Shown: in pieces, positions 6,235 through 46,025 of the stretch
Layout of the letters: every line of letters starts with the position of its first letter
Numbering within the stretch: the first letter of the stretch is position 1
DNA from: an uncultured Bacteroidales bacterium
Lineage (GTDB): Bacteria > Bacteroidota > Bacteroidia > Bacteroidales > UBA12077
DNA: 64,000 nt
Direction: 5' to 3'
NCBI GenBank assembly: GCA_964461045.1
Contig: CAYWSJ010000001.1
Location: 1,114-65,113 of the forward strand
Notes under the pieces: generated by a model
The model's input: only the letters and a program-made list of their open reading frames with translations
Databases searched by the model: none
Told to the model about the DNA's origin: nothing
Position numbers and translations under genes: made by a program

Positions 6235-6245
6235 AAAAAAACAAA

Positions 6246-10542: not shown

Positions 10543-10738
10543 ATTTGATTTTAATGTATTTTTTAATCTAACTAAATAGCTGATTTTCGGATGATTTTGA
10601 TTGCAAAATGACTCGAAAATCTTTTTTATGAAGTATAAATTTTGGGTGTTACTAAATTGAGAAATTATGACTGACGGGTTAATTTATGAATTATTCGGGC
10701 TGGGTTGTTAATCGATTTAACTTAAATACTATTCCATA

Positions 10739-15280: not shown

Positions 15281-16033
15281 TTAATTTGAATTGATTTGTC
15301 TTAAACTCGAAACCTTTTCCATTTTTTTACTAACTTCTCCATTCGGCGCAAGCACCACACAACCCCTTTTATATCCAGTTTCAAGCCCGGAGGCAGCTGA
15401 GGGGAAATATGGGGTCAGATTATTATTTTTAAACAATTGGCCAAATACCTGAATGGTCAGGGATTTCTTCCTGGAATAATGATCGTACGTATAACCTCCA
15501 TCGTCAGGAACTTTAAAATCGTCTATCATAATTATGAATTGATCCCAATGGCTAACAATTATTTCAATTTCCTTTTTGAGCGGCAAATCCTTATACCAAT
15601 GAGCGTCCAGGTAAATGAATACTTTTTTGTTTTTCATATTCTTAGACGAGAGTTTTTTTAAGAATTCCCTTGAATCTCCCAAAAAATAATGAATGTTGTT
15701 TATTTCTATTAGTCTTCTGTGTGCAATATCGTGAAACCACTTGTTGAGTTCACAGGTGTATATCGGTAAGGAGGAGGTTTTGGCCATATAACCCGTGGTG
15801 TCTCCTGTATAAGTTCCTGTTTCAAGAATGGCATCAAATTTAAAAGTATTCATTAGTTCCATAAAAATTTTTTTCCTGTATTGTTGCCCGTTAAAGCCAA
15901 CATTAGAGGCTGCCTGGAATTTTGGACTGTTAATTATCCACTCCAATGCAGCTTCGAGGTTAAAGATGTGATCCCATAGCTGTTTATACTGTTTGTATGC
16001 GTAAACCGGGAAAATTAGTTTTTTTAGTTGCAT
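15281..16033 (-). CDS. putative class I SAM-dependent methyltransferase-like protein
   Basis: 250 aa. ILETGTYTGDTTGYMA resembles the E/DxGxGxG SAM-binding loop; later acidic strands (YLDAHW, MIDDF). Last gene of the minus-strand operon. Weak call. Confidence 0.4.
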   Translation of the reverse strand: MQLKKLIFPVYAYKQYKQLWDHIFNLEAALEWIINSPKFQAASNVGFNGQQYRKKIFMELMNTFKFDAILETGTYTGDTTGYMAKTSSLPIYTCELNKWFHDIAHRRLIEINNIHYFLGDSREFLKKLSSKNMKNKKVFIYLDAHWYKDLPLKKEIEIIVSHWDQFIIMIDDFKVPDDGGYTYDHYSRKKSLTIQVFGQLFKNNNLTPYFPSAASGLETGYKRGCVVLAPNGEVSKKMEKVSSLRQINSN

Positions 16034-16045
16034 AATCGTTATATT

Positions 16046-17113
16046 TTAGTTGTTTGTAAGCGAGTCTGATGCTCCTGTATTTTTATTGTTAGTAAGCAAT
16101 GGTTCGTTGGCGTTAAATATTTTTTCAAACTGAAAGGCAATATCTTTGGTAAAACGCATTGCTCCTTTTTCATTTAAATGCAATGGGTCTGAGAAATACC
16201 TGTTTTCGTAAAAAGGCAATTCCCAGTTACGTGAAAAATAAATGTGATCGTATTTGGCACTTAATTCTTTTAATACTTTCGGAAGTTCATCAAATTGCTT
16301 GTATTTCCCTTTTCTTGCAGGGTGACTTATTATTAAAACCTTGACGTTGTGCTTTTTAGTGAGATTAAAGAATTTTTCTACAAACACATCGCCATCTGGC
16401 TCATATATTTTCATTTCGTATTCCGGGCAGTCTGATTTTTCTTTATAATCTGCAGGTAATTTTCCTTCAGGAAATCTTGATTGTTCCTTGATAAAATAGT
16501 AACCCCGATCCTCAATCATCTTTCTGATAATGGCATTGTTTTGTTTTCTCTTTTCTTCAATATCCGAGGGATAAGCAACTGAATTATAAAGAAATTTAAA
16601 CATAGGTTTCCGATAAACATGGCAAGGTAGTAAGTAGTTAATTGTTTGATTTTTGCTGCCATTGTGATAGAGGAAATAGGAAACCACTTCACCCGGAAAG
16701 TCTATTCCCTGGTTGGCATAGCTGTCAAAAAGCAAAACAGGCTCATTTGCTACATGGTAAGTCATAATGATATAATCCGGAGGATCATTATTTTCCAGGT
16801 AATCCAGAAGAGCATGGTAGTAAGGGCCAATTGGTAATGCAGGAAGTGCCAGGTTCAGGGAATAGGTTTTATTATTCAATGTGGAGTCGAAAACTTCCGG
16901 TACTAGTGCCGATAAAACATCGCTTGCGCCAAAATAAAGAACAGTTTTTTTACCATCAGGAATTTCCCATTTATTCTCTCTTATGGCGATTCTTTTTTGT
17001 TCGCAGACAATGGATGCCCCATCTTTGTATACTTTCCCGGAATGGATGCCAAGTTGGTTAAGCAAAACCACAAGTACAAGTAAAATTCCGGAATGTAGAA
17101 TTACTTTTTTCAT
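16046..17113 (-). CDS. extracytoplasmic SGNH-like protein (DltD/AlgJ/AlgX-like partner of the MBOAT)
   Basis: Signal/anchor MKKVILHSGILLVLVVLL. FGASDVLS (block-I-like) and DPLHLNEKG (DxxH block-V-like). Starts 3 bp downstream of the MBOAT gene. Confidence 0.5.
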   Translation of the reverse strand: MKKVILHSGILLVLVVLLNQLGIHSGKVYKDGASIVCEQKRIAIRENKWEIPDGKKTVLYFGASDVLSALVPEVFDSTLNNKTYSLNLALPALPIGPYYHALLDYLENNDPPDYIIMTYHVANEPVLLFDSYANQGIDFPGEVVSYFLYHNGSKNQTINYLLPCHVYRKPMFKFLYNSVAYPSDIEEKRKQNNAIIRKMIEDRGYYFIKEQSRFPEGKLPADYKEKSDCPEYEMKIYEPDGDVFVEKFFNLTKKHNVKVLIISHPARKGKYKQFDELPKVLKELSAKYDHIYFSRNWELPFYENRYFSDPLHLNEKGAMRFTKDIAFQFEKIFNANEPLLTNNKNTGASDSLTNN

Positions 17114-17116
17114 AAC

Positions 17117-18556
17117 TTAAAATTGAAAATAAACAAAATCTGATGCTGCAAATTTGCCAAATATCAGTACTGTTAAGACCAATCCATAATACAATGCATA
17201 TTTTATTAACGGTCTGTAAGTCAGTTTATCTCTTATTATAATTCCCTTCTCATTTAAATAATCAAAAAGAAGTACAATAATAATTCCTGAAGAAGCAATA
17301 ACATGGTCGGTATGAGTCATACCCATATTGTATCCTGTCAGTCTCCATTCCAGTCCGTGAAAAAGATTAGTTATCAGATAAACGGCGTCCTTCGTACTTG
17401 ATGCATTAAAAAACACCAGGGAAAAAGCAAAGAAGATGAAAACAATGACCCTGCTGAAAAATTTTACCCAGTATTTGTTCATCTTTGAGGCAAGCTGCAA
17501 TCGTTTTCTCTTTGTAAAGAATTCATAATTAATGGCAACACCTTGCAACGCCCCGAGAATAATAAAATTCCAGCCCGAGCCATGCCAGATACCTATAATA
17601 AGAAATGTGATGAATACCCCGTAAACCGCCGCCCACTTCTTCCATCTCATGCGTTTCAGCAAAATTCTTTTAAAAATATAATCGTTACACCATTGTGAAA
17701 GAGTGATGTGCCATTTTCTCCAGAACATGCTAACATTTTGAGCGAACAAAGGTCTTTCAAAATTATTGGTAAGCCTTAAGCCAAAAAGTTTCCCAATGCC
17801 CAGGGCTATATCTGTATAACCTGAAAAATCGCAATAAATATGAAATACTTGTAAAACAAAGACAGTCATAAGGGGAACACCTGTAAATTCATTGACGTTA
17901 CCATATATAATGTTTACAAGTACAACCAGCCTGTCTGCTATTACCAGCTTTTTAAATAATCCCCAGAAGATCTGGATCAGGCCGTCATAAAAGAGTGTTG
18001 AATCGAACTGATAGTTTTTTTTCAGGGAAGGCAGGAACGACTTTGAACGTTCTATTGGACCAGCAAGCAGCTTAGGGAAAAATAAAATGTAACTAGCAAA
18101 AAAGCCCCAGTGACGTTCCGCTTTGCCGGACCCACGGTAAATTTCGATTAAATATCCAATACACTCAAAAGTATAGTATGAAATGCCGATGGGAATAATG
18201 AGATTAATGTATTCAAATTCAGTTCCCGGTTCAAAAATCCCCAGGAATGTATTTGCGTTCTCTATCAGGAAGTTAATGTATTTGAAGAAAATAAGCTGGC
18301 CAATATTCAATACCATCCCCAAAAGGTAGAGCGGGAAGCGTTTCTTTTTTTCTTCTTGTTTTTCTATCAGTCTGCCAAGGAAATAATTGATTGTTATAAC
18401 CAGGTAGGTATATACGAGAAAATTGATTGAGAAATAGCCCAGAAAAGCCGTACTGGCAAGCAGCAGAATAAACCACTGGTGGCTTTTTTTTGCCTGGTAA
18501 TATAAAAGCAGCAATACAACAATAAAAATAAAAAATTCAAGCGTGCTGAAAATCAT
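17117..18556 (-). CDS. membrane-bound O-acyltransferase (MBOAT; AlgI/DltB family)
   Basis: 479 aa, polytopic. FWRKWHITLSQWCNDYIF and IIGIWHGSGWNF match the conserved MBOAT His-containing motifs. Confidence 0.85.
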   Translation of the reverse strand: MIFSTLEFFIFIVVLLLLYYQAKKSHQWFILLLASTAFLGYFSINFLVYTYLVITINYFLGRLIEKQEEKKKRFPLYLLGMVLNIGQLIFFKYINFLIENANTFLGIFEPGTEFEYINLIIPIGISYYTFECIGYLIEIYRGSGKAERHWGFFASYILFFPKLLAGPIERSKSFLPSLKKNYQFDSTLFYDGLIQIFWGLFKKLVIADRLVVLVNIIYGNVNEFTGVPLMTVFVLQVFHIYCDFSGYTDIALGIGKLFGLRLTNNFERPLFAQNVSMFWRKWHITLSQWCNDYIFKRILLKRMRWKKWAAVYGVFITFLIIGIWHGSGWNFIILGALQGVAINYEFFTKRKRLQLASKMNKYWVKFFSRVIVFIFFAFSLVFFNASSTKDAVYLITNLFHGLEWRLTGYNMGMTHTDHVIASSGIIIVLLFDYLNEKGIIIRDKLTYRPLIKYALYYGLVLTVLIFGKFAASDFVYFQF

Positions 18557-18590
18557 ATATCCCTGTTAAATTGTTAATAATTATTATGCT

Positions 18591-20195
18591 TTATTCCTGT
18601 TCTTTATTTACAGGAATACTTTTTAAGCGTTTTTTATCTGTTTTTCCATGAGCTGTTTTGGGCAGCTCATCTAAGAACTCAATATATCTGGGAACACTGA
18701 ATGGTTCCAGGTTCTTAGCGCAGTGAAAAATGATTTTCTGACTATCTGGTTTAAAACCTTTGACAGGCACAACAAATGCTTTTATCGCCTGGCCCAGAAT
18801 TTCATCATCAACGCCAACCACAGCACATTCATTTATTCCTTCTACCTGGTTGATAATGTTTTCAACTTCTTTAGCGCTAATTCTCTCGCCCCGTGACTTA
18901 ATCATATCGTCTTTCCTCCCGATAAAATAAAGGTACCCTTCCTGGTCTGTTTTAAAATAGTCTCCGGTAAAGAGAAGTTTTTCACGGAAACCCAGTCCGG
19001 GCCTGAATGTTTTCGCTGTTAGTTCAGGCGCATTCCAATAACCCTGCATTACATTAGAACCTCTAACCACGAGTTCTCCTGTCTGCCCAGGCTTTACCGG
19101 TTCTTCGTTTTTATCTACAACAAAGACTTCACAATTGGGCATGGCTTTGCCCACCGAATCTGTCCGGTTGTCAATTTCTTCAGGGGGCAAATAAGCAATT
19201 CGCTTACACTCGGTTAGTCCGAACATGGAATAAATCTGAACATGGGGCATTAATTTTCTGAATCGTTTTATGTGTTCTGCCGGAAATGCAGCTCCTGTGT
19301 TGGAGATGTAACGTAATGTGCTTAAATCAAAGGATTTCAGATCAATTGTTTTAAAGATCATGGCCACAATTGTCGGAACAATAGGGAATCCGGTAACTTT
19401 CTCTTTGGCGACCAGGTTTAATACTTTGGTAAGGAAAATAAATGATCTTTCAAGGACGATCGTACCTCCGAACATGAAAGCCATAATAACCTGGTAAAGC
19501 CCATAGTCAAAGGACAGGGGTAAAGTGTTCAGAATAATATCGTCCGGAGTATTCCCCAGGTACTGAATGATGCTGCGTGCAGCAGAGATAATGTTGTAGT
19601 GCGATTCCATAACCCCTTTGGGTTCACCAGTTGATCCCGAAGTATAGATCAATCCTGCCAGATCAATATCCAATACCCGCCGGTTGGATATTTTCTGTAA
19701 ATCATAATGATTCAACTTGTATGATTTTCTGCCGAAGATTTTGGTCCAATGAAATGTTGATACATTTTCTTCAGCCGATGGGTTTATTTTATTTGGGCCA
19801 GTCCAGATTATCGTGCAGGAGATTGCATTTTTTCTTACTGCTTTAAGAACAATATTTTGTTTTCTTTCATCGGCCACGATAATCTTGGGTTTACAGTCGC
19901 CAATGATATAAGATAACTTTTGAAGCTGAACGACACTGTTTATGATAGTGAAAATTCCTCCGGCTTTCATTGCAGCATAAAAAGAAATGATTATCTCAGG
20001 AGAGTTGTCCATGTAAATTAAAACCCTGTCCTGTTTTTCCAGTCCATGGTTTATAAAAAATCTACTCAGAAAATTTACGCGGTTGAATATCTCCCTGTAC
20101 GTATAGCGTCTATCGGAAAAAATCAGCGCCTCTTTGCCCGGGTATTTTTTTGCCGACTCATCAAAATAATCGTATAATAAGGTTGCATGATTCAT
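18591..20195 (-). CDS. adenylate-forming (AMP-binding) ligase
   Basis: 534 aa. LIYTSGSTGEPKGV (A3), GELVVRG, GDYFKTDQEGYLYFIGRKDDMIKSRGERI (A7/A8), PKTAHGKTDKK (A10). Confidence 0.85.
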   Translation of the reverse strand: MNHATLLYDYFDESAKKYPGKEALIFSDRRYTYREIFNRVNFLSRFFINHGLEKQDRVLIYMDNSPEIIISFYAAMKAGGIFTIINSVVQLQKLSYIIGDCKPKIIVADERKQNIVLKAVRKNAISCTIIWTGPNKINPSAEENVSTFHWTKIFGRKSYKLNHYDLQKISNRRVLDIDLAGLIYTSGSTGEPKGVMESHYNIISAARSIIQYLGNTPDDIILNTLPLSFDYGLYQVIMAFMFGGTIVLERSFIFLTKVLNLVAKEKVTGFPIVPTIVAMIFKTIDLKSFDLSTLRYISNTGAAFPAEHIKRFRKLMPHVQIYSMFGLTECKRIAYLPPEEIDNRTDSVGKAMPNCEVFVVDKNEEPVKPGQTGELVVRGSNVMQGYWNAPELTAKTFRPGLGFREKLLFTGDYFKTDQEGYLYFIGRKDDMIKSRGERISAKEVENIINQVEGINECAVVGVDDEILGQAIKAFVVPVKGFKPDSQKIIFHCAKNLEPFSVPRYIEFLDELPKTAHGKTDKKRLKSIPVNKEQE

Positions 20196-20219
20196 AATTC
20201 TGCAATTTTTTGTAATGAA

Positions 20220-21248
20220 TTATAATACAGTTGCTTCATTGAATTTATCTGTCTCCAGGTCTTTTTCATGGTAGATGATAGATTCCCTTCTCAGATAATC
20301 AGTTGTTTGCTGTTTTCTTCTGAATGAATTGAAGATATTTTTAACAGCCTCAGGAGTTTTGTTTAACAGGTTTGCTACGTTCTCCGGTTCATAATTATTT
20401 TCGTAAGCATACCATAATAAATCCATCTCTTTAAAGGGCAGTTGGAAGAAAAACTCTTCCTGTGTTTGTTCTGCAGAGTAAGTGTCTGTAGTGGGTGTTC
20501 GCTTAATGATCTCTTTGGGGATTTCCAGGTGTTCTGCGAGCTGATACACCTGGGTTTTATACAGGTGTCCAATCGCCATGATATCAACACCGCCATCGCC
20601 ATGCTTAACAAAAAAACCCTGGTTGATTTCCTGCTTGTTTGAAGTACCGATAACCGCATAATGAAGTTTTTCAGCATAATAGTAAAGCATACACATTCGG
20701 GTTCTCTGCTTAAAGTTAGAGGCAGCCATAATCTCCAGAAATTCAGGTGCAGGTAGCTTTTTCTTGTTCTCATTACCATTTTCAGCAACAAGGGTTATGT
20801 AAAATACAGAGGGGAGTGTGGTTTCAATCAATGATTCGTTCAAGCCTATTTTAAATTTGTGTTTTTTGGGATTATATCCGGGAAAGAGTCTTTTAACGGC
20901 AGCATCTCTCCTGGGATAACACTGAAAACCCTGTAACGCCTCAGTAATGTCTTCAATATAATAATCAACCCGTAATTTTTTGGCCAGTTTTTCGGCTAGT
21001 TTGACACTATCCGGACTGGAATCTTTTTCCGGCAGCATGAGGGCTGTAACATTTTTGCTGCCCAGCGCACGAACTGTCAGTGCAAGTGTTACTGAAGAGT
21101 CTATCCCTCCGCTTATTCCTATAACACCACCTTTCCTTCGGAGCCGGCGGTGTACATCCTCTTTTATTTTCTTACACAAATTCTCAATGTATGTATTAAC
21201 ATTGTCGATTTTTAATATATCCTGGGTGAAAGGTTTTGTTGTATACAT
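20220..21248 (-). CDS. NAD-synthetase-family PP-loop ATP pyrophosphatase (NadE-like), in an EPS context
   Basis: 342 aa. GVIGISGGIDSSV PP-loop, later NFKQRTRM and GTSNKQE motifs typical of NH3-dependent NadE. Sits inside the decoration operon. Confidence 0.65.
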   Translation of the reverse strand: MYTTKPFTQDILKIDNVNTYIENLCKKIKEDVHRRLRRKGGVIGISGGIDSSVTLALTVRALGSKNVTALMLPEKDSSPDSVKLAEKLAKKLRVDYYIEDITEALQGFQCYPRRDAAVKRLFPGYNPKKHKFKIGLNESLIETTLPSVFYITLVAENGNENKKKLPAPEFLEIMAASNFKQRTRMCMLYYYAEKLHYAVIGTSNKQEINQGFFVKHGDGGVDIMAIGHLYKTQVYQLAEHLEIPKEIIKRTPTTDTYSAEQTQEEFFFQLPFKEMDLLWYAYENNYEPENVANLLNKTPEAVKNIFNSFRRKQQTTDYLRRESIIYHEKDLETDKFNEATVL

Positions 21249-21291
21249 AATTTTTGGGTTTTAAATTATTACTACACTTAAAAAGCCAGCG

Positions 21292-23265
21292 TTAAATGCT
21301 GATTTCTTTTTTAATATTCAATTTTTCCACAGGAGCCTTCTCTTTGGAAAAATTGCGAATAAACTGGTCATACAATAGTTGAGTCGATACAATACCAATT
21401 AGAGCCATATCGTTTACCTCTGAGATATTCTGACCCAGAGTATACTTTTGTTTCAGCCATTGTATCTTAATAGGATCGAAAATTCCAAAATCTTTGATCA
21501 TGCTGGGGCATAAAATAGCTTTTATTGCTTTCGATACTTTTGATTTGTTTACCATATGTGAAACCGGCGCTCTGTATGCCTGTTTTGGACGCTTAATGAT
21601 GCTTTCGGGAATTTTTTGGTTCATAATCTTTTTTAAAATATATTTTTCCGACAGACCATTGAGCTTTAAGTCTGCAGGCAAGGAGGCAGCATACTCAATA
21701 ATCCGGTGGTCAAGGAAAGGATAGCGACCTTCGACAGAATTTGCCATGGCCATTCTGTCTCCCTGCGATGACAAAAGATAACCCGACATAAACATGTTTA
21801 TCTCCAGCCATTGTGCTTTGGCTAAGGGTGTCCATGAATTAAAAGTGTCAGGCAGAAGGCCATTCACCTCTTCAAACGGGTCGTAGTTGTTGCTATTACA
21901 GAGAAATTCCTGGGAAAGAAAATTCTTAATCCTTGAAGTATTATTCCAGCGAATTAAATGAGAATAGTAGGGAGAAGAGGTTTCTTCCAGCTGAAACCCG
22001 AAGAATAATTTAAGCATTCCAGGGCTGGCTGATTTAATGTATGGAATATAGGGATACAATTTTTTGAGCAGGAGAGGTCTGAATTTGGAATCAGGATGTT
22101 TGGCCCAGAAGTGTCTTATGATTGTTTCTTTAAAAATATTGTATCCAGCAAGCATTTCATCAGCACCTTCTCCGGTGATTACTACCTTTATGCCATTTTC
22201 TCTTACCAAACGGGAAAGAAAGTACATTGGCGCAGGTGCTGTACGTATTACCGGAGTTTCTGTATGCCAGATAATCCTGCCAAAATGTTCAGTAATGTCA
22301 TTGTTTTCGCAAACAAATCGTTTATGAGTTGTATCCAGGAATTTCGAAGCTTCATTCTGATAATTTGTTTCATCATATTGTGCTTCTTTAAAACCAATGG
22401 AGAAGGTTTGAAGATTTTGTGGCTGTAAGTCTTTTATCATGCACGTTGTGGCCGTAGAGTCCAGTCCGCCACTTAGATAAGCTGCTACAGGAACGTCGGA
22501 GCGTAAACGTAACCGGATGGCATCATAAAGCAACTCCCCAAATTCCTTTTGTGCTTTTTCCGGGGAAGTTTCTTTAACAGATGAAAAAGAGAGTTCCCAG
22601 TACCGTCTAATTGTTAGCTTGCCTTTACTGAGTTTCAGATAATGCCCCGGGGGCAGTTCAAATACATTTTTAAAAACGGTATTTGGACTTACCGGGGTCC
22701 AAAAGGTAAAAATTTGAATAAGCGCCTTGTTATTAATTTCTCTTGGTAACCCGGGAAATTCAAACAACGATTTAACTTCTGAAGCGAAAAGAAAATTTCC
22801 TTTTTGGTATGTGTAAAAAAGTGGTCTTATTCCCACGCGATCCCTGGCGAGGAAGAGCTCGTGCGTTTTTTTGTCCCAGATGGCAAAGGCAAACTGTCCA
22901 TTGAGTTTGGTAAGGCATGATTCGCCGTAAACTGCATAAAGTTGTACCAAGACCTCTGTGTCCGACTTCGTTTTAAACCAATAACCCTTTTTTTCGAGTT
23001 CTTCCCTTAATTCAATATAATTAAAGATCTCCCCGTTAAAAACGATCCAGTATCTCTCTGATTGATCACAAACAGGCTGGGTCCCGCCTTGCAGGTCTAT
23101 AATGTTTAACCTGACATTACCCATTAAGAGATTCTTTCCAGTTACAATACCACATTCATCAGGGCCGCGGTAGTGAATCCTGGCCAACATCCTTTTGAGT
23201 GTATCATGGAATGAAGGAATCCTTAAAGAAGGACTATAAATACCTGCAATACCACACATTTTCAA
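21292..23265 (-). CDS. asnB: asparagine synthase family glutamine amidotransferase (AsnB-type)
   Basis: 657 aa. N-terminal MCGIAGIY (Ntn Cys2) and AYLSGGLDST PP-loop in the synthetase domain. The asnB symbol marks family membership only: the operon context suggests polysaccharide amidation rather than Asn synthesis. Confidence 0.85.
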   Translation of the reverse strand: MKMCGIAGIYSPSLRIPSFHDTLKRMLARIHYRGPDECGIVTGKNLLMGNVRLNIIDLQGGTQPVCDQSERYWIVFNGEIFNYIELREELEKKGYWFKTKSDTEVLVQLYAVYGESCLTKLNGQFAFAIWDKKTHELFLARDRVGIRPLFYTYQKGNFLFASEVKSLFEFPGLPREINNKALIQIFTFWTPVSPNTVFKNVFELPPGHYLKLSKGKLTIRRYWELSFSSVKETSPEKAQKEFGELLYDAIRLRLRSDVPVAAYLSGGLDSTATTCMIKDLQPQNLQTFSIGFKEAQYDETNYQNEASKFLDTTHKRFVCENNDITEHFGRIIWHTETPVIRTAPAPMYFLSRLVRENGIKVVITGEGADEMLAGYNIFKETIIRHFWAKHPDSKFRPLLLKKLYPYIPYIKSASPGMLKLFFGFQLEETSSPYYSHLIRWNNTSRIKNFLSQEFLCNSNNYDPFEEVNGLLPDTFNSWTPLAKAQWLEINMFMSGYLLSSQGDRMAMANSVEGRYPFLDHRIIEYAASLPADLKLNGLSEKYILKKIMNQKIPESIIKRPKQAYRAPVSHMVNKSKVSKAIKAILCPSMIKDFGIFDPIKIQWLKQKYTLGQNISEVNDMALIGIVSTQLLYDQFIRNFSKEKAPVEKLNIKKEISI

Positions 23266-23272
23266 ATGAAGT

Positions 23273-23557
23273 TTAAGTTTTAACAGACTGTTTTTGCTTT
23301 ACGTAATCGGCTATGGCGTTAACAGATTCGAAGTTTTCCTCTATGAAATCTTTGTCCTCTGTTTTAACGTCAAATTCGTCTTCAAGAAAGGTGATTAATG
23401 TGATAAAACCCATAGAATCAAAAAATCCTTCTTTAAAGATTAAAGTATCAAATTCAATATCCGCGGGGTCCGAATAAGTATTATCTGAAATGAACTTATA
23501 AACCTTCTCCTTAATATAGTTTTCAGTTATCATCTTTTTAGTTATTTGATTAAACAA
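23273..23557 (-). CDS. acyl/aminoacyl carrier protein (phosphopantetheine-binding)
   Basis: 94 aa, acidic. GFFDSMGFITLITFLEDEF fits the carrier-protein Ser attachment motif. First gene of the operon. Confidence 0.7.
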   Translation of the reverse strand: MFNQITKKMITENYIKEKVYKFISDNTYSDPADIEFDTLIFKEGFFDSMGFITLITFLEDEFDVKTEDKDFIEENFESVNAIADYVKQKQSVKT

Positions 23558-23721
23558 TTATTTTTCTCTTGCTAATTATACGGCTATTAACTAATTTATT
23601 GAGTCTATCAATAATACAAATTATGAAGAATTCCAATAAAAGTCAATAGAATAAACCTCTATTATTTAGGAAGGTATATTTTGGATGAATTATTTATTAT
23701 TTTTTAGATTTTCCTCACAAA

Positions 23722-25134
23722 TTAATATGTTGATTTGGAAGAGAAAATATCGGAGCAAAACTCTTTTGCACCGATATCCACTGCCTCTCCACAATAGTTT
23801 AATGAAAGATTCCAATTGGTAAGTTTGTTACAACCTTTATCAATGCAAGGGGAAGATTTTACCAGGTTAAAATTATTGTCTGGATTATTCTCAAATAATG
23901 GATCACAAAAAATTGAGTGCTTCCCATTTCCCGTTGCAAAAGTGAACCATACCAAACTTCCGTAGCCATCGAATAATTTATTTGGCTTAGGGATAAAATA
24001 ACAGTTGTAGTTTTCAGTAAATGGCTTTTTAAGATATATCATATGGTTTTTGATTGAACTGGCATAAAAAATATTGTTGAGTATGTGTACATTTTGAGCA
24101 TTCAGCGCCACCGGATTATTCCAGAATGTATTATTGACGACAACTCCATTATGTGTATTTATTAACCACATACCTATTTCGTTTTCTGTCAGGATATTTT
24201 TGAAAAGTTTTATGTTTTTAGCATGACTGTATATTCCGCAAGGACTATGAGACAACAGGTTGTAACAGACCCTTATTGAGTCTGTTCCAAAGCCAAGGTA
24301 AATACATGCTCCTCCGCTGCCTTTCAGAGAAGGGCCTTTTAGTTGGTTGCCCATGATCATACCTTTTTTTGAATTATTGGCAACCACACAGAACTTATTT
24401 CCGGTATCTGTGCGGTCTATATTACAGTTGCTTACAGTAAATCCGGAACAATTCTCAAGTTGTATTCCGTCACCGGAAGCCTGTAGTTCTGCTTTGCCCA
24501 ATGTGTACCACTTTTGATTTACTTTATTGACCTGACAGGAGTCAATTTTCAATCTGTTTATATTTTGTGCATAGATGCCATCATCTCCGGTGTTGGATAT
24601 TTTGCACGATATAATGTTTATGTTATGTATATGCTCCTGATTTTCCTGCCCCATTAAACGTATACCCCACATAGCCCTGGTAAAGTTGCAATTCCGGACG
24701 CAGATATCTTTCGAATTTCCCATAACACGAATGCAATAGATACTATTACTTTTGCCGTTTATGTGAATGTCTTTTATTGTAATGTTTTTTGAACTATTGA
24801 TATTAATTGGCTTTTCTACATATTTTGTGTTTATTACAGGACTATTTCCTTCTCCATAAGTTTCAATTCTTATACTGGTTTTACTGTTAAAATTTATAGG
24901 ACGATGTAAAATAAGTATTGTGGAGCGTTTAATATAGTATGTTGCATTGGAAACAAGTTTTATCTCGTCCAGGCTGTTGTAGGGATTTTTTATTGTTCCA
25001 TTTCTTCCTAAATTTGTATTTCCAGGGTCAATATAGATTTTTTTATTCGCCCCTTCTGTCTGATAAGAAAAAAGGAGAAAAATAAATACAATAGCATACC
25101 TCAAATTCAATTTTTCTTTAATTATAAAATTCAT
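23722..25134 (-). CDS. secreted right-handed parallel beta-helix repeat protein
   Basis: 470 aa. Signal/anchor YAIVFIFLLFSYQTEG. Repeated ~22-aa N/G/I-rich coils (IISCKISNTGDDGIYAQN, VSNCNIDRT..). The N-terminus is paralogous to that of 31894..35274. Confidence 0.65.
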   Translation of the reverse strand: MNFIIKEKLNLRYAIVFIFLLFSYQTEGANKKIYIDPGNTNLGRNGTIKNPYNSLDEIKLVSNATYYIKRSTILILHRPINFNSKTSIRIETYGEGNSPVINTKYVEKPININSSKNITIKDIHINGKSNSIYCIRVMGNSKDICVRNCNFTRAMWGIRLMGQENQEHIHNINIISCKISNTGDDGIYAQNINRLKIDSCQVNKVNQKWYTLGKAELQASGDGIQLENCSGFTVSNCNIDRTDTGNKFCVVANNSKKGMIMGNQLKGPSLKGSGGACIYLGFGTDSIRVCYNLLSHSPCGIYSHAKNIKLFKNILTENEIGMWLINTHNGVVVNNTFWNNPVALNAQNVHILNNIFYASSIKNHMIYLKKPFTENYNCYFIPKPNKLFDGYGSLVWFTFATGNGKHSIFCDPLFENNPDNNFNLVKSSPCIDKGCNKLTNWNLSLNYCGEAVDIGAKEFCSDIFSSKSTY

Positions 25135-25149
25135 TTGTTTTATTCTATA

Positions 25150-26355
25150 TTATTTTACATGATTTAATCTTATTATTTTTTTAATATTCTGGCGTAATCC
25201 ATAAGGAACCTTTTTGCGAAAATTTTGTGCAAGCGGATATATATATTTATTTCCCAGGAATTTTGATACTTTGTTAATTGGATAATTTTTCTCTTTAGCA
25301 AGAACGAGAATTTCTTTACCCAATGGATCTTTATCATATAAAAGCGATTCTATGTATGCTCTTTTTATTCTGTTAAATCTATTGATATCAAATACCTCTT
25401 TGTAAAGATGTTGCAAGCCCAGTATCTCTAATGTCAAGAGTGTACGTGCACATTTGAAGCACACAGAACAGTTCCTCACATTTTCCAGTGTTGTATCGGT
25501 GCAAACATAGAGATGACGGTAAGAAGGTTTTAGCTTCGCAACTTGCTCAGTCTTTTCAACCCTTGTATAATTGGAACCCACCATGATGCAGTCCAGAGAT
25601 TCTGTAGAGTATAATGAGTGAGTCAAAGGTTCTGTATACCCTATTTTATATATGTCGGAAGTAAGAAAATTACCGTAGGTATAACCCGAGGCATAAAGGT
25701 ATTTGGAAAACATTTTCTGTAGAACCATAACAGATGCTACATTTCTTGGCAGAACAGAGAGAAGAAAACTTGAATCAATAATATCATAAAGATTCGAATT
25801 GACTTTAATAAATGGTAACTCATATTCTTCTGCAAATTTTTCCAAATGGTAATAACGCTTATGGAAGAAAACGGAAGCATTGCTGCCATGAGCACCTACG
25901 TTATTGTAAATCAGATGTGTAACCTTATAATGAGGAGGTACATTATGATTGAAATAGTAATCACTTAAGACACTAAATGAATCAATCCCTCCTGAAAATC
26001 CTGTTACTACATTTTGAGTATCTGTATTTAATAAATTCCCGTTAAAATCCTCAGGAAATATCTTTATCTCATGGAACATAGGATCTAAAAAGGTGTAAAT
26101 ATTCACTATATTATTTGTCAGGTTGTAATAAAGCTTCTCAGATACCGGTCCATCAAGATAAATATCTTCATTAAGCTTCATTGCATGCACAAAAAGACCA
26201 ATTAGAAATGCATCAAGCGTTTCGTCTGAAACATAATCTTCATAGACCTTGTTAACTGCAAACCAAACCCTGGCTGAGCCTTCATGTGTTTCTACTTTTG
26301 AAGTAAGCTTAACCTGGTCTCCTTTTACGGATTTTTCTATCTTGTTGATTTTCAT
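25150..26355 (-). CDS. uncharacterised PP-loop (adenine nucleotide alpha-hydrolase-like) protein
   Basis: 401 aa. VVTGFSGGIDSFSV matches the SGGxDS PP-loop; C-terminal Cys cluster NCSVCFKCARTL. No closer family recognised. Confidence 0.5.
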   Translation of the reverse strand: MKINKIEKSVKGDQVKLTSKVETHEGSARVWFAVNKVYEDYVSDETLDAFLIGLFVHAMKLNEDIYLDGPVSEKLYYNLTNNIVNIYTFLDPMFHEIKIFPEDFNGNLLNTDTQNVVTGFSGGIDSFSVLSDYYFNHNVPPHYKVTHLIYNNVGAHGSNASVFFHKRYYHLEKFAEEYELPFIKVNSNLYDIIDSSFLLSVLPRNVASVMVLQKMFSKYLYASGYTYGNFLTSDIYKIGYTEPLTHSLYSTESLDCIMVGSNYTRVEKTEQVAKLKPSYRHLYVCTDTTLENVRNCSVCFKCARTLLTLEILGLQHLYKEVFDINRFNRIKRAYIESLLYDKDPLGKEILVLAKEKNYPINKVSKFLGNKYIYPLAQNFRKKVPYGLRQNIKKIIRLNHVK

Positions 26356-26498
26356 TTTAATTTATTTTAGTGATAGAAACAACAATAGGTTTACTAAACC
26401 ATTTATTTAACTAAATACATTCTTATAAAGGTGGTTACTGATTAAACAATAGCACTTCAATAATATGGGCCACTCAAGCTACCTTACTCGCTTATTTA

Positions 26499-26529
26499 TT
26501 AACACTTGATTTTCAGCAACAAGTGTTAA
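26499..26529. promoter_or_regulatory. perfect 10-bp inverted repeat in a divergent intergenic region
   Basis: ttaacacttg (26499-26508) / caagtgttaa (26520-26529) with an 11-nt spacer, between divergent genes 25150..26355(-) and 26736..27545(+). Confidence 0.25.
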
Positions 26530-26735
26530 GCTTTTCCTGTTAAAAAAATAAAAAGTATAAAAGACAAAATAGTACTTTTTTTTATAAAAATCAATATAAC
26601 GGACTGATTATTTGGGGATAAATTTTAAAAAATAACTACAATTGCAGGTTAAATCCATATTCGTTATTGTTTTTTTCGTACCTTTAGTTTAGAAAGTTTT
26701 AGTTTAATTAACCCAATTGAATAAAACCATCTTCT

Positions 26736-27545
26736 GTGTCATGCAGACTTATAGCAATGAATAAATATGATGGTTTTATGGCAAAAAAAACAAAACTTAA
26801 ATCTATAAAGGCTATGAAGAAATTAATTTTTGTATTAGGAACAGGGCGTTCCGGGACTCATTTACTGGGTCGGACAATAAGCAGCCATCCTCTTATAGAA
26901 GGCCATATCGAAGATCCTGAATATTTTCATCCCGCTGTTAATATTGCTGTAAAGCAGGATATAAGTTATAACTTTTACAATAGAATTCAGAAATACAGAC
27001 TTGTAAAAAAATACAAACAATTGCTGAAGAAATCTGCCGGTGAATATATTCTGGATAAGACCCATCCTGTAATCTGGTATGCCGAATACTTAATGAAGAA
27101 AATTCCTGGTTCATTATTTGTTGGTATTATAAGAAATCCCTATCAAACTGTAAGCAGTATGTTGAATCATTCGGGTGTTCTGGAATGGTACGCTAAACTG
27201 CCCCAGGATAAACCTAACCGTTTTTTGGGCATTACAGAAGAAAACAAATCTTTTTTTAAAGATTTGCCACTGGAAACAAAATGTGCTTATCGCTGGCTTT
27301 CGCATAAAAGGGAACTACAAAGGCTTCAGGGTGTTCTGAAGGACCGGTATGTGTTATTTGATTACGATAACTTTTTAGAAAATCTGAATGAAAACCTTGA
27401 AAAGTTAAGCCAGTTTCTGAAAATAAGCAACCAATTTAATCCGGAACACCTGAAAACTGAAAGTCTTGATAAATGGAAAACGTTTCTTAATGGGGTACAG
27501 ATCAGAAATATTGATTCTGTTACACAGGAAATTCCAGTAGCATAG
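26736..27545 (+). CDS. sulfotransferase family protein
   Basis: VLGTGRSGTHLL (5'-PSB P-loop) and GIIRNPYQTVSS (3'-PB motif). The track start is GTG 26736; ATG 26814 (MKKLIFVLGTGRSG) is the more likely start. Confidence 0.7.
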   Translation: MSCRLIAMNKYDGFMAKKTKLKSIKAMKKLIFVLGTGRSGTHLLGRTISSHPLIEGHIEDPEYFHPAVNIAVKQDISYNFYNRIQKYRLVKKYKQLLKKSAGEYILDKTHPVIWYAEYLMKKIPGSLFVGIIRNPYQTVSSMLNHSGVLEWYAKLPQDKPNRFLGITEENKSFFKDLPLETKCAYRWLSHKRELQRLQGVLKDRYVLFDYDNFLENLNENLEKLSQFLKISNQFNPEHLKTESLDKWKTFLNGVQIRNIDSVTQEIPVA

Positions 27546-27558
27546 AAATGTTTGGTTA

Positions 27559-28626
27559 TTAGCTGTAAATAGGCTTTTCATTGGTGTCTTCAAGCAAGTT
27601 AAGGTATACCGGATTATTACGGAATCCTTTTTGCGCGATTTCATGATCATTTAATCCCGGGCGAATGTTTCCCTCTATGATTAATGGACCATCGGGTGTA
27701 ATGGCCATATCCCAGCCTACTAATATGATCTGGGGTACGCTTTTAGCTGCGTATAAAGCCAATTCTTTAGCTTCCCGGAAATAGGGTATTCTGAACCCTT
27801 TGGGTTTAAATCCCGTAACAGGATGTTTGTAATAGACTTCTCCTGTATTTTTCTCAAAACCTGTGCATATCTTATCATAAAGAATACCATTTTCCATATC
27901 CAGCGGAATGAAACCGCCCCCGAAGGAAACATTATCAACATAAGCCTCACTTAAAGAGGCTTTCTGGGTAATTCCAAGAATCCTGGGAATTTTATCTTTG
28001 TTGGTATAGGTAACAATTCGAACACAGTTAATGCTGTTCGGATTTATTTTGTTCATTTCATCGTGCTGTATGATCTGGTTCTGATAAATATAACCCGCTT
28101 TTATTACTTCACTGTAGATTTTGTTTAGTAACTCCCTGTCTTCTTTCAACTGCTCCGGAGTAACTTTAAAAATATTTTTTCCTCCAAAAGAATCTTCTTT
28201 TTTCTTAATAAATATAGCCTTTTCTACTGGAAGTGAGTTGATAAAACCAAGGAATTCTTCAGGCGTACCGATTAATTTTAGTTTCCCATTTTGCACAAAA
28301 ATTGCTTTATGGTTATATGCCAGCGTTTTAACCACATTGATTCCAAACTGGGAAAGATATTTCTCAAAGTTATCTTTCATTTCAAATGCAGGCGTAAAAT
28401 GCTCTTCATTAATGTCCCAATACTTTTTGTGAAGCCTGTTTGTATTAATATAATTGTTTATTTCTCCTGCATCTTCCCGGTACAGAGGTTTAATAAAGTA
28501 TTGTTCAGCCAGTAAGGGTTTGGTTAATTTTAACCAGAAATACTCTTTAAGGATTTTTAGTGTCGACTTTCGTTCTTTATGCCTTAAAGCCCGTCTTATC
28601 CTCTTGGTAAAAGCCTTTAAATTCAT
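27559..28626 (-). CDS. ATP-grasp enzyme (sugar-transfer-associated ATP-grasp-like)
   Basis: 355 aa. FIKKKEDSFGGKNIF, CVRIVTY, GGGFIPLD and GWDMAITPDGPLIIEGN fit ATP-grasp strand/loop motifs. Confidence 0.6.
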   Translation of the reverse strand: MNLKAFTKRIRRALRHKERKSTLKILKEYFWLKLTKPLLAEQYFIKPLYREDAGEINNYINTNRLHKKYWDINEEHFTPAFEMKDNFEKYLSQFGINVVKTLAYNHKAIFVQNGKLKLIGTPEEFLGFINSLPVEKAIFIKKKEDSFGGKNIFKVTPEQLKEDRELLNKIYSEVIKAGYIYQNQIIQHDEMNKINPNSINCVRIVTYTNKDKIPRILGITQKASLSEAYVDNVSFGGGFIPLDMENGILYDKICTGFEKNTGEVYYKHPVTGFKPKGFRIPYFREAKELALYAAKSVPQIILVGWDMAITPDGPLIIEGNIRPGLNDHEIAQKGFRNNPVYLNLLEDTNEKPIYS

Positions 28627-28843: not shown

Positions 28844-30274
28844 ATGTCTTTTAAAAAGGCCTTTTTTAAGAACATCTCAACCTTTGCTGTTTATAATTAT
28901 CTTACACAGGGTGTTGAATTTCTGGCTACGATAGTTTTGTCAAGGTTGCTTCTTCCCGAAGAATATGGTTTTGTTGCGATGATCTATATTTTTGTTGGTT
29001 TTATCAGATTGTTTGCTAATTTGGGTATTGGTGTGACAGTTGTAAGATCAGATTATAGGTACACCTACCATAAACATTTGTTTAGTCTCGCGATATGGCT
29101 TGGATTTGCACTCAGCATAACCTTGTCAATGTTGTCTTACCCAATAGCTGTATTTTTTGATAATATGGAACTCATAATACCCACGATTATAGTGTCCGTA
29201 AAATTCATCTTTGACTCTTTAACTTACATTCCTATAGCAATTCTCAATAAAAAACTCGATTTTAATTCTATTGGTAAAATAAGGTTGTCAGGAACCTCTT
29301 TTCAGATTGCGATGATGATTTTACTGGCCTTTTTGGGGTTTTCATACTGGTCTTTAATTATTCCGGTAATCTTTAATCCAATTGTTCAGTATCTTTTACT
29401 CAGAAGGAAAGTGAAATTACCTATTCGGATTTATGGTTGGAGGGCTACAAAACGGATGATCTACCGGATTCGTTCTCTCATGGGAAATCTTTCTCTCAAT
29501 AATCTTGTCAGGTACTGGTCAAATCATGCAGATAAGGTCGTGATTGGGAGACTCTATATGCAGTCTGACCTTGGTCTTTATAACAGGGCTTTTCGTTTCG
29601 TTCAGATAACCAATCATCTTATAACCGGTATTTTTAGCTCTGTGTTGTTTCCTTCACTAAAGCAATTAATCGATGAAAAGGGAGATGCAAACCGGGAATA
29701 TCTCGATATTGTGAAAATCATTACATTATTTAATCTTCCGGTTGTTATTATTCTGGTGGTTCTCCCGGAAATTCTTGTCAGAATTCTCTGGGGAAATGAC
29801 TGGACAGGAGTGGCGCCCTTTTTGCCTTATGTTGGCCTGATAATTATATTTAATTCAATTATTAGCACAATGGCCCCGGTATTTCTTCTTTATGGGAAAG
29901 AGCGAAATCTATTCCTTGTAAATCTTGCAAGCAGCATGATGACTATCCTACTTGTGATTGGTGGTGGTTTGTTTTCCATTATGCACGTTATTAAATTTCT
30001 TGCATTAGGCTATTTGTTTTTCACCATACCTGTGAACATCTATTTTGGTTTTTATAAATCTTTTGGATTCAAAATTGGCTTAATGTTACGTTTTTGGATT
30101 CCAACCCTCATATTTGGAATGTTTCTTTTCATTTCTATTAGCTGCGATTCAATATTACTTAAATTACTTATAATTATTTTCTATATGGGATTTCTATTTT
30201 ATGAACTAAGGGGAACTGCAAAAGAAAGCTTTAAATATTTGTTAAATCGTCTTCGTAAGAAAAAAGAAGCTTAA
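28844..30274 (+). CDS. polysaccharide flippase (Wzx, MOP superfamily)
   Basis: 476 aa, about 12-14 TM helices. N-terminal ..NISTFAVYNYLTQGVEFLATIVLSRLLLPEEYG.. is typical of Polysacc_synt flippases. Confidence 0.75.
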   Translation: MSFKKAFFKNISTFAVYNYLTQGVEFLATIVLSRLLLPEEYGFVAMIYIFVGFIRLFANLGIGVTVVRSDYRYTYHKHLFSLAIWLGFALSITLSMLSYPIAVFFDNMELIIPTIIVSVKFIFDSLTYIPIAILNKKLDFNSIGKIRLSGTSFQIAMMILLAFLGFSYWSLIIPVIFNPIVQYLLLRRKVKLPIRIYGWRATKRMIYRIRSLMGNLSLNNLVRYWSNHADKVVIGRLYMQSDLGLYNRAFRFVQITNHLITGIFSSVLFPSLKQLIDEKGDANREYLDIVKIITLFNLPVVIILVVLPEILVRILWGNDWTGVAPFLPYVGLIIIFNSIISTMAPVFLLYGKERNLFLVNLASSMMTILLVIGGGLFSIMHVIKFLALGYLFFTIPVNIYFGFYKSFGFKIGLMLRFWIPTLIFGMFLFISISCDSILLKLLIIIFYMGFLFYELRGTAKESFKYLLNRLRKKKEA

Positions 30275-30368: not shown

Positions 30369-31673
30369 ATGGATAGATCCTTTATTAATTGGAATGACAG
30401 TATTAAAGATACTAATTCCCCATCCAGAAAAGATTATGTCAGGCCAGCACTTATAATATTAGTTCTTGCTGGCTCTGTATATTTTTTCAGAGTAAATTTT
30501 TTAACTAAGGATATAATCTATATAGCCCAATTTTTTGTCATCGGACTGATGGGTACTGTGATTCTGTTTCAGGCAATATACTGGAAATATGAATTGTATA
30601 GGCGAAATTTTATTTCACCTATATTTTTAATTTTTTTAGGAGTATTTCTGAGTATGATAACAGCCTATGCCTTCCACAGCCAGTCATTTGTGATTTCGTT
30701 CTGGGCTCAGCGGTTTACGTACTTTTATCTCTTCTATTTTGTTTTGCATATTATACAGGTGCCAATTCAGACACTTGAAAAAATATTATTTTTTGCAGGT
30801 GTTGTTTATGCTTTTGTATTTTTTGTTCAATATCTGGCTTTCCCGAAAGTCATTTTTACTGTACGACAAGGTATTGAAAGAGGAACAGTTCGTATTTTCA
30901 TACCTGGTATGGCATTCATGCACCTTGCCTACTTTATGGGCCTTACAAGGGTGATCTTTTTTAATAAATTTAAATATGTTCCTTACTTGCTGCTTTTTCT
31001 GGGCATCTATATATTAACAGGAACGCGTTCTACAATTGCCGGTCCAACTATTATCACGATATTAATATTAATTTTCAGTAATAAAATCAGATCCAGGGGA
31101 GTCATTCTTATACTTATAATTCTTTTATTGGGAGCTGCTTATTATATGTTCCAGGATATTATCGAGAATTTAATCACATTATCGGTAGAACAAAAGGAAA
31201 CCGCAGAAGAGAATATCAGGGTAAGGGCAACGAGATTTTTTATGACTGATTTTTTCCCGAATAATTTTGCATATATCACCGGGAACGGGGAGGGGCACCA
31301 AGCATCTCCTTTTGGGAAAGAAATTTTCTCTTATAAAATTTTATATGGTTATTATCAATCTGATATAGGCTTAATTGGCGAATATATAAAGTTTGGTGTT
31401 TTCTTTTTACTTGGAGCATTTATGATCCTCTATAAAGGGATTTTTCAATCTGTTGACACCAATCATAAATATGTACGTTACTTTTTCCTGCTTTTATTAA
31501 TTTCAATGCCTCTTAGTGCGAATTTTACCTCACCAGACAGTATTGTGGCAATTTGTATAATGGCTTATATTCTGGACTATTTAAAGAACAACAAAAAAGA
31601 AAAGAAAAAAGAGAAAAAACCGCTTGTATATTTTCCTGAACTGGAATACAGAAAACAAAGTTTTATTAAATAA
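30369..31673 (+). CDS. O-antigen/EPS polymerase (Wzy-like, O-antigen ligase family)
   Basis: 434 aa, polytopic, with a large loop (..EQKETAEENIRVRATRF..GNGEGH..). Lies next to wzx. Confidence 0.6.
   Translation: MDRSFINWNDSIKDTNSPSRKDYVRPALIILVLAGSVYFFRVNFLTKDIIYIAQFFVIGLMGTVILFQAIYWKYELYRRNFISPIFLIFLGVFLSMITAYAFHSQSFVISFWAQRFTYFYLFYFVLHIIQVPIQTLEKILFFAGVVYAFVFFVQYLAFPKVIFTVRQGIERGTVRIFIPGMAFMHLAYFMGLTRVIFFNKFKYVPYLLLFLGIYILTGTRSTIAGPTIITILILIFSNKIRSRGVILILIILLLGAAYYMFQDIIENLITLSVEQKETAEENIRVRATRFFMTDFFPNNFAYITGNGEGHQASPFGKEIFSYKILYGYYQSDIGLIGEYIKFGVFFLLGAFMILYKGIFQSVDTNHKYVRYFFLLLLISMPLSANFTSPDSIVAICIMAYILDYLKNNKKEKKKEKKPLVYFPELEYRKQSFIK

Positions 31674-43793: not shown

Positions 43794-46025
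<2,232 letters not shown>

Follow-up and report, generated by a model that had tools for sequence, protein, structure and literature searches.

Among the closest described relatives of the system analysed here is the Dlt pathway of teichoic-acid D-alanylation (DltA, DltC, DltB, DltX and DltD). The tyrosine of the acyl-shuttle hexapeptide FxYxxF carries the acyl group in DltX as well as in the PatA-type MBOATs, and it has been reported that the MBOAT-SGNH pathways other than Dlt have no carrier protein and use an acyl-CoA donor (PMC12148441). A further precedent comes from vicenistatin biosynthesis, where, according to a review, VinN employs Asp230, the bulky Phe231, Ser299 and Lys330/Arg331 to accommodate 3-methylaspartate or aspartate, either being bound as a beta-amino acid (PMC11253843), and another one from the capsule of Campylobacter jejuni, where the C-terminal TupA-like ATP-grasp domain of Cj1438 amidates the carboxylate of glucuronic acid (GlcA) (PMC11800379). 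In this article we analyse a stretch of 64,000 nucleotides (the window) from an uncultured Bacteroidales bacterium (GenBank assembly GCA_964461045.1, contig CAYWSJ010000001.1, positions 1,114 to 65,113 of the forward strand) and propose, with what we judge to be an even chance of being right, that its minus-strand genes at 15281-23557 code for a single Dlt-like pathway, supplemented with two amidotransferases, by which an extracytoplasmic polysaccharide is acylated. An initial annotation had noticed five ATP-dependent carboxylate-activating enzymes at 18591-28626 and had predicted from their density a polymer with several individually tuned charged groups. All five open reading frames (ORFs) proved to be intact and to fall into the enzyme classes named there, four of them with high confidence by Pfam or NCBIfam; the carrier protein, the DltB-like MBOAT and the DltD-like SGNH protein on which the present proposal depends were absent from that annotation.

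The biosynthetic half of the proposed pathway consists of four minus-strand genes. The ligase (18591-20195) is a stand-alone adenylation enzyme with AMP-binding and AMP-binding_C domains (E 8e-93); its best specialised NCBIfam match was TIGR03098, the XrtA/PEP-CTERM acyl-CoA ligase (458 bits, under the cutoff of 592), and there was no DltA model among its 25 best NCBIfam matches. The NadE-like PP-loop enzyme (20220-21248; NAD_synthase, E 3.5e-56) has no glutaminase domain, bears the name 'NAD(+) synthase' in the public records and is the most conserved gene of the four; it passes NCBIfam NF002048 (422 bits versus a cutoff of 313) and contains an insert of about 70 amino acids compared with the NadE structures of the PDB. 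The third gene (21292-23265; GATase_7/6 and Asn_synthase, E 4e-86) encodes an AsnB-like glutamine-dependent amidotransferase, whose likely start at the ATG at 23259 gives the N-terminus MCGIAG, and both the MCG N-terminus with the glutaminase cysteine and the SGGLDS PP-loop of the synthetase domain are present. This enzyme passes TIGR01536 (524 bits versus a cutoff of 267), while its best specialised NCBIfam match was TIGR03108, the XrtA/PEP-CTERM amidotransferase (441 bits, under the cutoff of 817). Judged by these profile scores, the closest named families of the ligase and of the AsnB-like enzyme appear to be the function-unknown XrtA-associated ligase and amidotransferase models, both under cutoff. 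Directly upstream of the AsnB-like gene lies the gene of a stand-alone carrier protein of the acyl or peptidyl carrier protein type (ACP/PCP-like; 23273-23557; Pfam PP-binding, E 2e-6) with the motif FFDSMGF; its ORF has 94 codons, and the probable start at the ATG at 23533 would yield a protein of 86 amino acids. The four genes are part of a row of nine which run in the same direction from 26355 down to 15281 with gaps of 3-43 bp except one of 164 bp, and from the ACP gene through the last one, which encodes a 250-amino-acid protein, all the intergenic gaps are 3-43 bp, an operon-like layout.

Close homologues of the NadE-like protein were looked up in public assemblies and then a family-alignment scan was carried out with one genome per species. 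The neighbourhoods of 84 loci (the window and 83 fetched ones) were compared by tblastn and by clustering of the neighbours. At least 577 species genomes contained a relative, and those listed are nearly all from Bacteroidota; the 80 listed relatives are 56-75% identical and represent the Bacteroidales, Marinilabiliales, Chitinophagaceae, Flavobacteriaceae and Sphingobacterium, besides one Ignavibacteriaceae metagenome-assembled genome (MAG). Of the 53 loci that had at least 5.5 kb on both sides of the NadE-like gene, 48 contained the AsnB-like, carrier-protein and AMP-ligase genes at a distance from it of no more than 8 kb, and the four genes formed a contiguous block of less than 6.2 kb in 40 of them. 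The ACP and AsnB-like genes were direct neighbours in 63 of 68 loci, also after rearrangement of the gene order. Furthermore, the catalytic motifs of all the module proteins are intact across the homologues: the phosphopantetheine-attachment motif DS[ML] of the carrier protein was kept in 67 of 67, the MCG start and the SGGxDS motif of the AsnB-like enzyme in 65 and 68 of 68, respectively, and the NadE-like proteins preserved SGGxDS in 81 of 81 and the NadE-specific FFxKxGDG in 79 of 81. The ligase, the NadE-like enzyme, the AsnB-like enzyme and the carrier protein are one co-inherited module, which was found twice in one MAG (CAYFRV01; loci L006 and L007). Since three of the five enzymes listed in the initial annotation belong to this module, their density in the locus is not due to chance, yet it does not represent five independent events. 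The expectation that several charge-modifying activities are encoded here was borne out (sulfotransferase, pyruvyl transferase, CE4 deacetylase, ATP-grasp enzyme and the acylation pathway), but not the notion of five enzymes each tuning a different sugar carboxylate. No account of this module, nor of a Dlt-like pathway in Bacteroidota glycan loci, was found in the literature searched, which did not extend to subscription journals.

The proposed export half is encoded directly downstream of the ligase gene. The first of its genes (17117-18556, minus strand) encodes an MBOAT (Pfam MBOAT, E 9e-19) which matches TIGR04091 (DltB) over its full length (E 4e-51; 174 bits, under the equivalog cutoff of 375); DltB proteins were its sole sequence matches in the PDB (E 8e-27), and the histidine of the WHxSLS motif is aligned with them. 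The protein ends with the hexapeptide FVYFQF, that is, the shuttle motif is fused to the MBOAT's C-terminal end and is not located on a separate DltX microprotein, and a C-terminal FxYxx[FY] was present in 29 of 29 module-linked MBOATs. The second gene (16046-17113, minus strand) encodes a protein of 355 amino acids with an N-terminal membrane anchor, which we assign as a DltD-like SGNH acyltransferase based on its SGNH residues and its predicted fold. Its Gly62, Ser64, Asn87 and Asp309-x-x-His312, the SGNH signature, are invariant across its own and two other MBOAT-adjacent subfamilies. The Pfam DltD model gave no significant match to it and single-sequence PDB searches gave nothing for this protein, as for the orphan PP-loop protein and the ATP-grasp enzyme discussed below, so that profiles and AlphaFold2 (AF2) models with Foldseek were needed. 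The profile of the three subfamilies found DltD (6o93) as the best PDB match (E 0.0026), and with the AF2 model (pLDDT 87) DltD accounted for six of the top seven Foldseek matches and for ranks 8 and 9 (probability 0.99-1.00). With the module included, the window possesses the full Dlt-like set, in which the ligase and the carrier protein are joined by an MBOAT that has its shuttle built in and by a DltD-like protein, plus the two amidotransferases.

The MBOAT gene was present in 22 of the 84 module loci, embedded together with the SGNH gene in the module operon in several gene orders, and 18 of these 22 loci also contained the DltD-like gene (Fisher p = 1e-13). Sixteen other module loci carried a WcaF-like hexapeptide acyltransferase, which never occurred together with the MBOAT (0 overlap, p = 0.004), and the two look like alternative outlets for one acyl donor. 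No further acyltransferase was detected by the Pfam scan in the gene array of the window. In locus L007 there are also two tandem pairs of an MBOAT and a DltD-like gene. The gene at the end of the co-directional array (15281-16033, minus strand; 250 amino acids), kept alongside the DltD-like gene in L001 and L007, had no Pfam or NCBIfam match; the PDB search gave only sub-threshold matches to class-I methyltransferases, including protein-isoaspartate methyltransferase, and its product may be a class-I methyltransferase. Within or beside the module 17 loci (L009 at 12867-13715, L036, L045 and 14 more) encode a 282-amino-acid lipoprotein of a family denoted S9 with no Pfam match, which may be another extracytoplasmic partner of the module.

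The ligases of the module fall into two classes, class D, to which the window enzyme belongs (FDYGLYQ and G.TE-CKR, 27 of 27), and class C (YCYGLSL and G.TE-ATAR, 46 of 46). They are 29% identical between the classes and 54-56% within a class, whereas the between-class identities of the NadE-like enzyme (61%), the AsnB-like enzyme (52%) and the carrier protein (44%) are almost as high as the within-class ones. By these values the ligase was exchanged while the other three proteins stayed constant, and such a swap on a constant background suggests that the three constant proteins recognise, and act on, a feature shared by both tethered acids. The closest PDB relatives of the window ligase were, in this order, the LgrA A-domain, VinN (3wvn, 3wv4) and malonyl-CoA synthetase. 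The specificity code was read from an alignment to a GrsA fragment, the sole check of which was that it gives the published code DAWTIAAICK; by this alignment class D ligases have Asp235, Tyr236, Thr301 and a Lys-Arg pair after G.TE in the beta13-beta14 loop, all of them invariant. The shortening of this loop, a trait of VinN, was not evident in the class D ligase by residue counting. The VinN-like signature predicts for class D an aspartate-like dicarboxylic acid, the free carboxylate of which would then be amidated. Class C ligases carry a cysteine at position 235 (46 loci) and lack the amino-binding aspartate, and they keep the loop arginine. We infer that both classes load a dicarboxylic acid via one of its carboxylates and that the class D acid bears an amino group in addition. 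Asp235 was at one point considered as proof of an amino-acid substrate for the whole module, and this was dropped in view of the cysteine in the 46 class C loci. A PrmC/HemK-like NPPY methyltransferase (L010 at 5612-6514, L089 at 13951-14865 and 19 more) is present in about three quarters of the class D loci, whereas all 46 loci of class C are without it; it is not in the module of the window, and as a lead it fits N-methylation of the amino group or of the new amide.

The chemical steps of the proposed pathway are our deductions from the linkage, the motifs and the folds that were observed. The ligase would activate a dicarboxylic acid, probably an aspartate-like one bound as VinN binds 3-methylaspartate, and would thioesterify it onto the carrier protein, as its family, signature residues and linkage indicate. 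The AsnB-like enzyme, with glutamine and ATP, might convert the distal carboxylate, left free on the tethered acid, to a carboxamide, and within this pathway the NadE-like enzyme would transfer nitrogen a second time, again at the expense of ATP. As the analogous DltB/DltX and PatA suggest, the MBOAT could then move the acyl group from the carrier protein onto the tyrosine of its own FVYFQF and across the membrane, from where the DltD-like protein (Ser64, Asp309, His312) would pass it to a hydroxyl of the polymer. Because the ligase, the NadE-like and the AsnB-like enzyme travel with a carrier protein, they most likely build one amidated acyl substituent, not three separate decorations. A zwitterionic polymer, which was thought possible in the initial annotation, could arise via an ester-linked amino-acyl group, for which the D-alanine of teichoic acids is a precedent.

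Several points weigh against this proposal. Its main weakness is that a dicarboxylic acid loaded via one carboxylate has only one left free, so that the presence of two amidotransferases is unexplained. Additionally, the NadE-like enzyme, which passes the 'NAD(+) synthase' cutoff and keeps FFxKxGDG, could bind, in place of an acyl-carrier protein, a substrate of the dinucleotide type, and the specificity code of the ligase depends on the GrsA fragment with its single check. Possible ways round the problem of the two amidotransferases are an amide-to-amidine step by the NadE-like enzyme, a tricarboxylic substrate, or a substrate resembling nicotinic acid adenine dinucleotide (NaAD), the last being thinkable since the NadE-specific motif is kept in nearly all homologues. 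Adenylation and nitrogen-transfer chemistry on amide carbonyls is known from other members of the PP-loop group, among them GMP synthase, TilS and WbpG-type enzymes. A far-reaching version would be a phylum-wide pathway in which the NadE-like enzyme makes no NAD but adenylates the carboxamide made by the AsnB-like enzyme and converts it to a carboxamidine, the ester-linked, permanently cationic amidine is exported by a hybrid Dlt/Pat machine, and the orphan PP-loop family amidates pyruvate-ketal carboxylates; we hold this to be a long shot.

The remaining points against the Dlt-like pathway concern its export half and favour at the same time an alternative, namely that the MBOAT and the SGNH protein make up a normal PatA/PatB- or AlgI/AlgJ-type pair for O-acetylation which uses acetyl-CoA and is no more than a neighbour of the module, and that the product of the module leaves via another, cytoplasmic transferase. 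The MBOAT remained under the DltB equivalog cutoff, 62 of the 84 module loci are without an MBOAT, and a fused FxYxxF is typical of MBOATs which are reported to use acyl-CoA and not a carrier protein (PMC12148441). Against an acyl-CoA donor argue the carrier protein and the ligase in the operon of the MBOAT, and the position of the MBOAT and SGNH genes within the module operon persists in several gene orders. The mutual exclusion with the hexapeptide acyltransferase also speaks against an independent pair, the SGNH partner is specifically DltD-like and not PatB- or AlgX-like, and the Pfam scan showed no other acyltransferase in the array of the window. We consider this alternative possible but unlikely.

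The genomic surroundings of the module bear on what its product is attached to. Wza, Wzc, initiating transferases, flippases and glycosyltransferases flank it in many loci. In Flavobacteriaceae (L051 at 6969-12432; L056, L067, L074) it forms a self-contained five-gene operon outside a polysaccharide locus, with the order hexapeptide transferase or 245-amino-acid protein, ACP, AsnB-like enzyme, NadE-like enzyme and ligase, and in Winogradskyella and Mariniflexile the module and one acyltransferase-like gene stand away from glycan genes, with an M1 peptidase gene on one side and recG on the other. Given these contexts, the assumption that the module is confined to polysaccharide loci was discarded.

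A direct action on sugars, as suggested in the initial annotation, would mean that the AsnB-like, NadE-like and orphan enzymes form WbpS-like uronamides or WbpG/PseA-like acetamidino groups, and that the ligase and the ATP-grasp enzyme add their groups independently. The setting in a polysaccharide locus is in line with it, the NadE substrate NaAD resembles, as we infer, a nucleotide-linked carboxylate, and the WbpS-type AsnB-like and TupA-like ATP-grasp amidoligases acting on the C6 carboxylate of GlcA are real precedents (PMC11800379). Nevertheless all the three enzymes of the module are tightly linked to a carrier protein, the adjacency of the ACP and AsnB-like genes survives rearrangements, and the occurrence of the module outside polysaccharide loci in Flavobacteriaceae is hard to square with locus-specific sugars. 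No uronic-acid-forming UDP-sugar dehydrogenase (UDPG_MGDP_dh) was present among the window ORFs scanned, so that there is no sign of a uronic acid on which a WbpS-type reaction could act, and the orphan protein has no WbpG/PseA-type NCBIfam match. Taken together, direct action on sugars seems quite unlikely to us.

The same Flavobacteriaceae loci could also mean that what the four genes make is not a glycan constituent but, for instance, a small molecule or an aminolipid, and that the module's association with polysaccharide loci is secondary; the position between the M1 peptidase gene and recG is what speaks for it. We regard this as improbable, in view of the export, initiation and glycosyltransferase genes around the module in many other loci and of its partners, MBOAT/DltD-like or WcaF-like hexapeptide transferases, which are typical glycan O-acyltransferases. 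That the NadE-like and AsnB-like proteins are a genuine NAD+ synthetase and a genuine asparagine synthetase placed in the locus by chance, the reading which the initial annotation had named as fatal to its own prediction and to which the profile names alone (both NCBIfam cutoffs are exceeded) and the retained NadE core motifs would lead, is hardly credible, since the synteny is clearly not a housekeeping one but that of a Wza/Wzc/Wzx/Wzy polysaccharide locus, the ACP and the ligase accompany these enzymes constantly across orders in variable loci, both of the copies in one MAG lie within a module, the NadE-like enzyme has its insert of about 70 amino acids, and only a minority of species (as a lower bound), not all of them, were seen to carry the module.

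The other two carboxylate-activating enzymes of the initial annotation appear to be separate tailoring activities. The orphan PP-loop protein (25150-26355, minus strand) contains the motif GFSGGIDSF and a C-x10-C-x2-C-x2-C cysteine cluster; it had no Pfam or NCBIfam match (E <= 0.01) and no PDB sequence match, and belongs to a family of about 300 proteins called 'hypothetical'. In 40 aligned members of the family Gly123, Asp125 and Ser126 of SGGxDS and the cysteine cluster are invariant, and the best Foldseek matches of its AF2 model (pLDDT 91.5) were the PP-loop enzymes TilS and the QueC-like Cap9 (probability 0.97-0.98, E 1.6e-3 to 5e-2). The earlier assignment to the PP-loop proteins is backed by this evidence, the support being real but modest in its statistics. 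As a core component of the module the orphan protein was ruled out, since it occurs in only 4 of the 84 NadE-centred loci. The orphan gene and the gene of a secreted right-handed beta-helix protein (23722-25134, minus strand; Beta_helix E 6e-12, NosD E 3e-10) accompany the module as a pair only in the closest relatives (L001, L006, L089). Among the immediate neighbours of the orphan family in the metagenome and genome loci fetched, a pyruvyl transferase (PS_pyruv_trans) was the commonest (18 of 92 neighbours), and in locus L090 (4961-7164) the two genes overlap; in the window they are about 10 kb apart. A reasonable idea would be that the orphan protein acts on the carboxylate of a pyruvate ketal, with the pyruvyl transferase as its partner.

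The ATP-grasp enzyme (27559-28626, minus strand) was identified as ATPgrasp_ST (PF14397, E 3.5e-40; 138.4 bits versus a gathering cutoff of 31.4), and it has no sequence relative in the PDB. Its gene is absent from all other NadE-centred loci and is a separate transcription unit with no linkage to the module. The adjacent sulfotransferase gene (26736-27545, plus strand; Sulfotransfer_3, E 7e-13) has a 72%-identical counterpart in L001, which is placed there in the corresponding way.

As a whole the window represents a polysaccharide locus of Bacteroidota, of the Wza/Wzc/Wzx/Wzy kind, with Wza at 5461-6234, Wzc at 6246-8648, an initiating sugar transferase at 9109-10542, a Wzx flippase at 28844-30274 and a Wzy-like protein at 30369-31673, in addition to five glycosyltransferases, a polysaccharide pyruvyl transferase (36703-37626, plus strand; PF04230, 33.4 bits versus a cutoff of 25.3) and a CE4 polysaccharide deacetylase (42560-43264, plus strand; PF01522, E 1.4e-19), which is the last gene of the locus. 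The sulfotransferase, the pyruvyl transferase and the CE4 deacetylase named in the initial annotation all scored above the Pfam cutoffs. Two cargo proteins of the type IX secretion system (T9SS) are also encoded in the locus, one of them with a Por_Secre_tail Pfam match. A protein of 1513 amino acids (10739-15280), read as T9SS cargo, consists of an internal duplication in which residues 23-717 and about 727-1427 are 65% identical, and it is distantly akin (E 4e-7) to the 411-amino-acid T9SS-tailed proteins that adjoin the module in other loci. The CE4 deacetylase gene is followed by the genes of Fur and KatG in the region 43371-46025 directly beyond the locus. The G+C content is 0.47-0.49 in KatG and in the middle of an ORF of 1477 amino acids (segments within 43371-46025 and 48932-53365), against a window background of about 0.35. 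A single giant ORF of more than 3523 amino acids with a signal peptide occupies 53432-64000 and continues past the end of the window; a ribosomal RNA operon considered at 53-64 kb was ruled out, since Rfam found no RNA family anywhere in the window and the region is this one ORF.

If the proposed pathway is true, the 'NAD(+) synthase' annotated in no fewer than 577, mostly Bacteroidota, species genomes belongs to surface-glycan acylation and is probably misannotated. The novelty would lie in a carrier-protein-dependent MBOAT/SGNH glycan acylation with added amidotransferases and a hybrid shuttle. Amino-acyl or amide esters alter the charge of capsules and EPS, with consequences for phage and immune recognition, resistance to antimicrobial peptides and the chemistry of marine particles. 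Cultivable carriers of the module exist (Winogradskyella psychrotolerans, Mariniflexile fucanivorans DSM 18792, Arenibacter hampyeongensis, Ancylomarina salipaludis and Geofilum rhodophaeum), which makes its chemistry open to direct testing. The link between the orphan PP-loop family and the pyruvyl transferase is a second lead.

Compared with the known systems, the window shares with Dlt the adenylation enzyme, the small carrier protein, the MBOAT, the membrane-anchored SGNH protein and the FxYxxF motif. It differs in that its host is a Gram-negative member of the Bacteroidota and the genes stand in a Wzx/Wzy polysaccharide locus, the shuttle motif is on the MBOAT instead of DltX, the ligase has a VinN-like signature for an acidic amino acid and not a DltA-like one, and two amidotransferases would be inserted between loading and export. 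The MBOAT with its fused C-terminal FxYxxF and the separate SGNH partner are reminiscent of PatA/PatB (PMC12148441), which are reported to work without a carrier protein and with acyl-CoA, whereas the operon of the window has a carrier protein and a ligase and its SGNH partner resembles DltD. From its sequence features the arrangement appears to be a hybrid of two MBOAT-SGNH mechanisms, the carrier-protein donor of Dlt and the fused tyrosine shuttle of PatA, and this puts directly to the test the claim in the literature that a carrier protein is used by Dlt alone (PMC12148441).

The loading half finds its nearest parallel in the starter pathway of vicenistatin (VinN/VinL and VinO), where a stand-alone A-domain enzyme likewise loads a stand-alone ACP. 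Asp235, the bulky residue 236, Ser/Thr at 301 and the Lys-Arg pair of the beta13-beta14 loop would be common to VinN and the window ligase by the alignment with the GrsA fragment. In both cases the carboxylate that stays free after tethering undergoes a later reaction, in the window as we propose. In vicenistatin biosynthesis it is removed by a pyridoxal phosphate (PLP)-dependent decarboxylase, whereas the window has amidotransferases and its product would go to a glycan and not to a polyketide synthase. The XrtA/PEP-CTERM ligase and amidotransferase (TIGR03098 and TIGR03108), EPS-locus proteins of unknown chemistry, gave the best specialised matches; the window proteins score under their cutoffs (592 and 817), the window lacks an exosortase, and to our knowledge a NadE-like partner is not part of that set. 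WbpS and WbpG/PseA are likewise ATP-dependent amidotransferases of surface-glycan loci. We know of no carrier protein in systems of these types, while in the window the AsnB-like enzyme is coupled to an ACP and no uronic-acid pathway was seen among the ORFs scanned. For the ATP-grasp enzyme at 27559-28626, finally, Cj1438 is the best functional precedent, as an ATP-grasp protein of a capsule locus, even though the window enzyme is a stand-alone protein of the ATPgrasp_ST family (PF14397) and not TupA-like.

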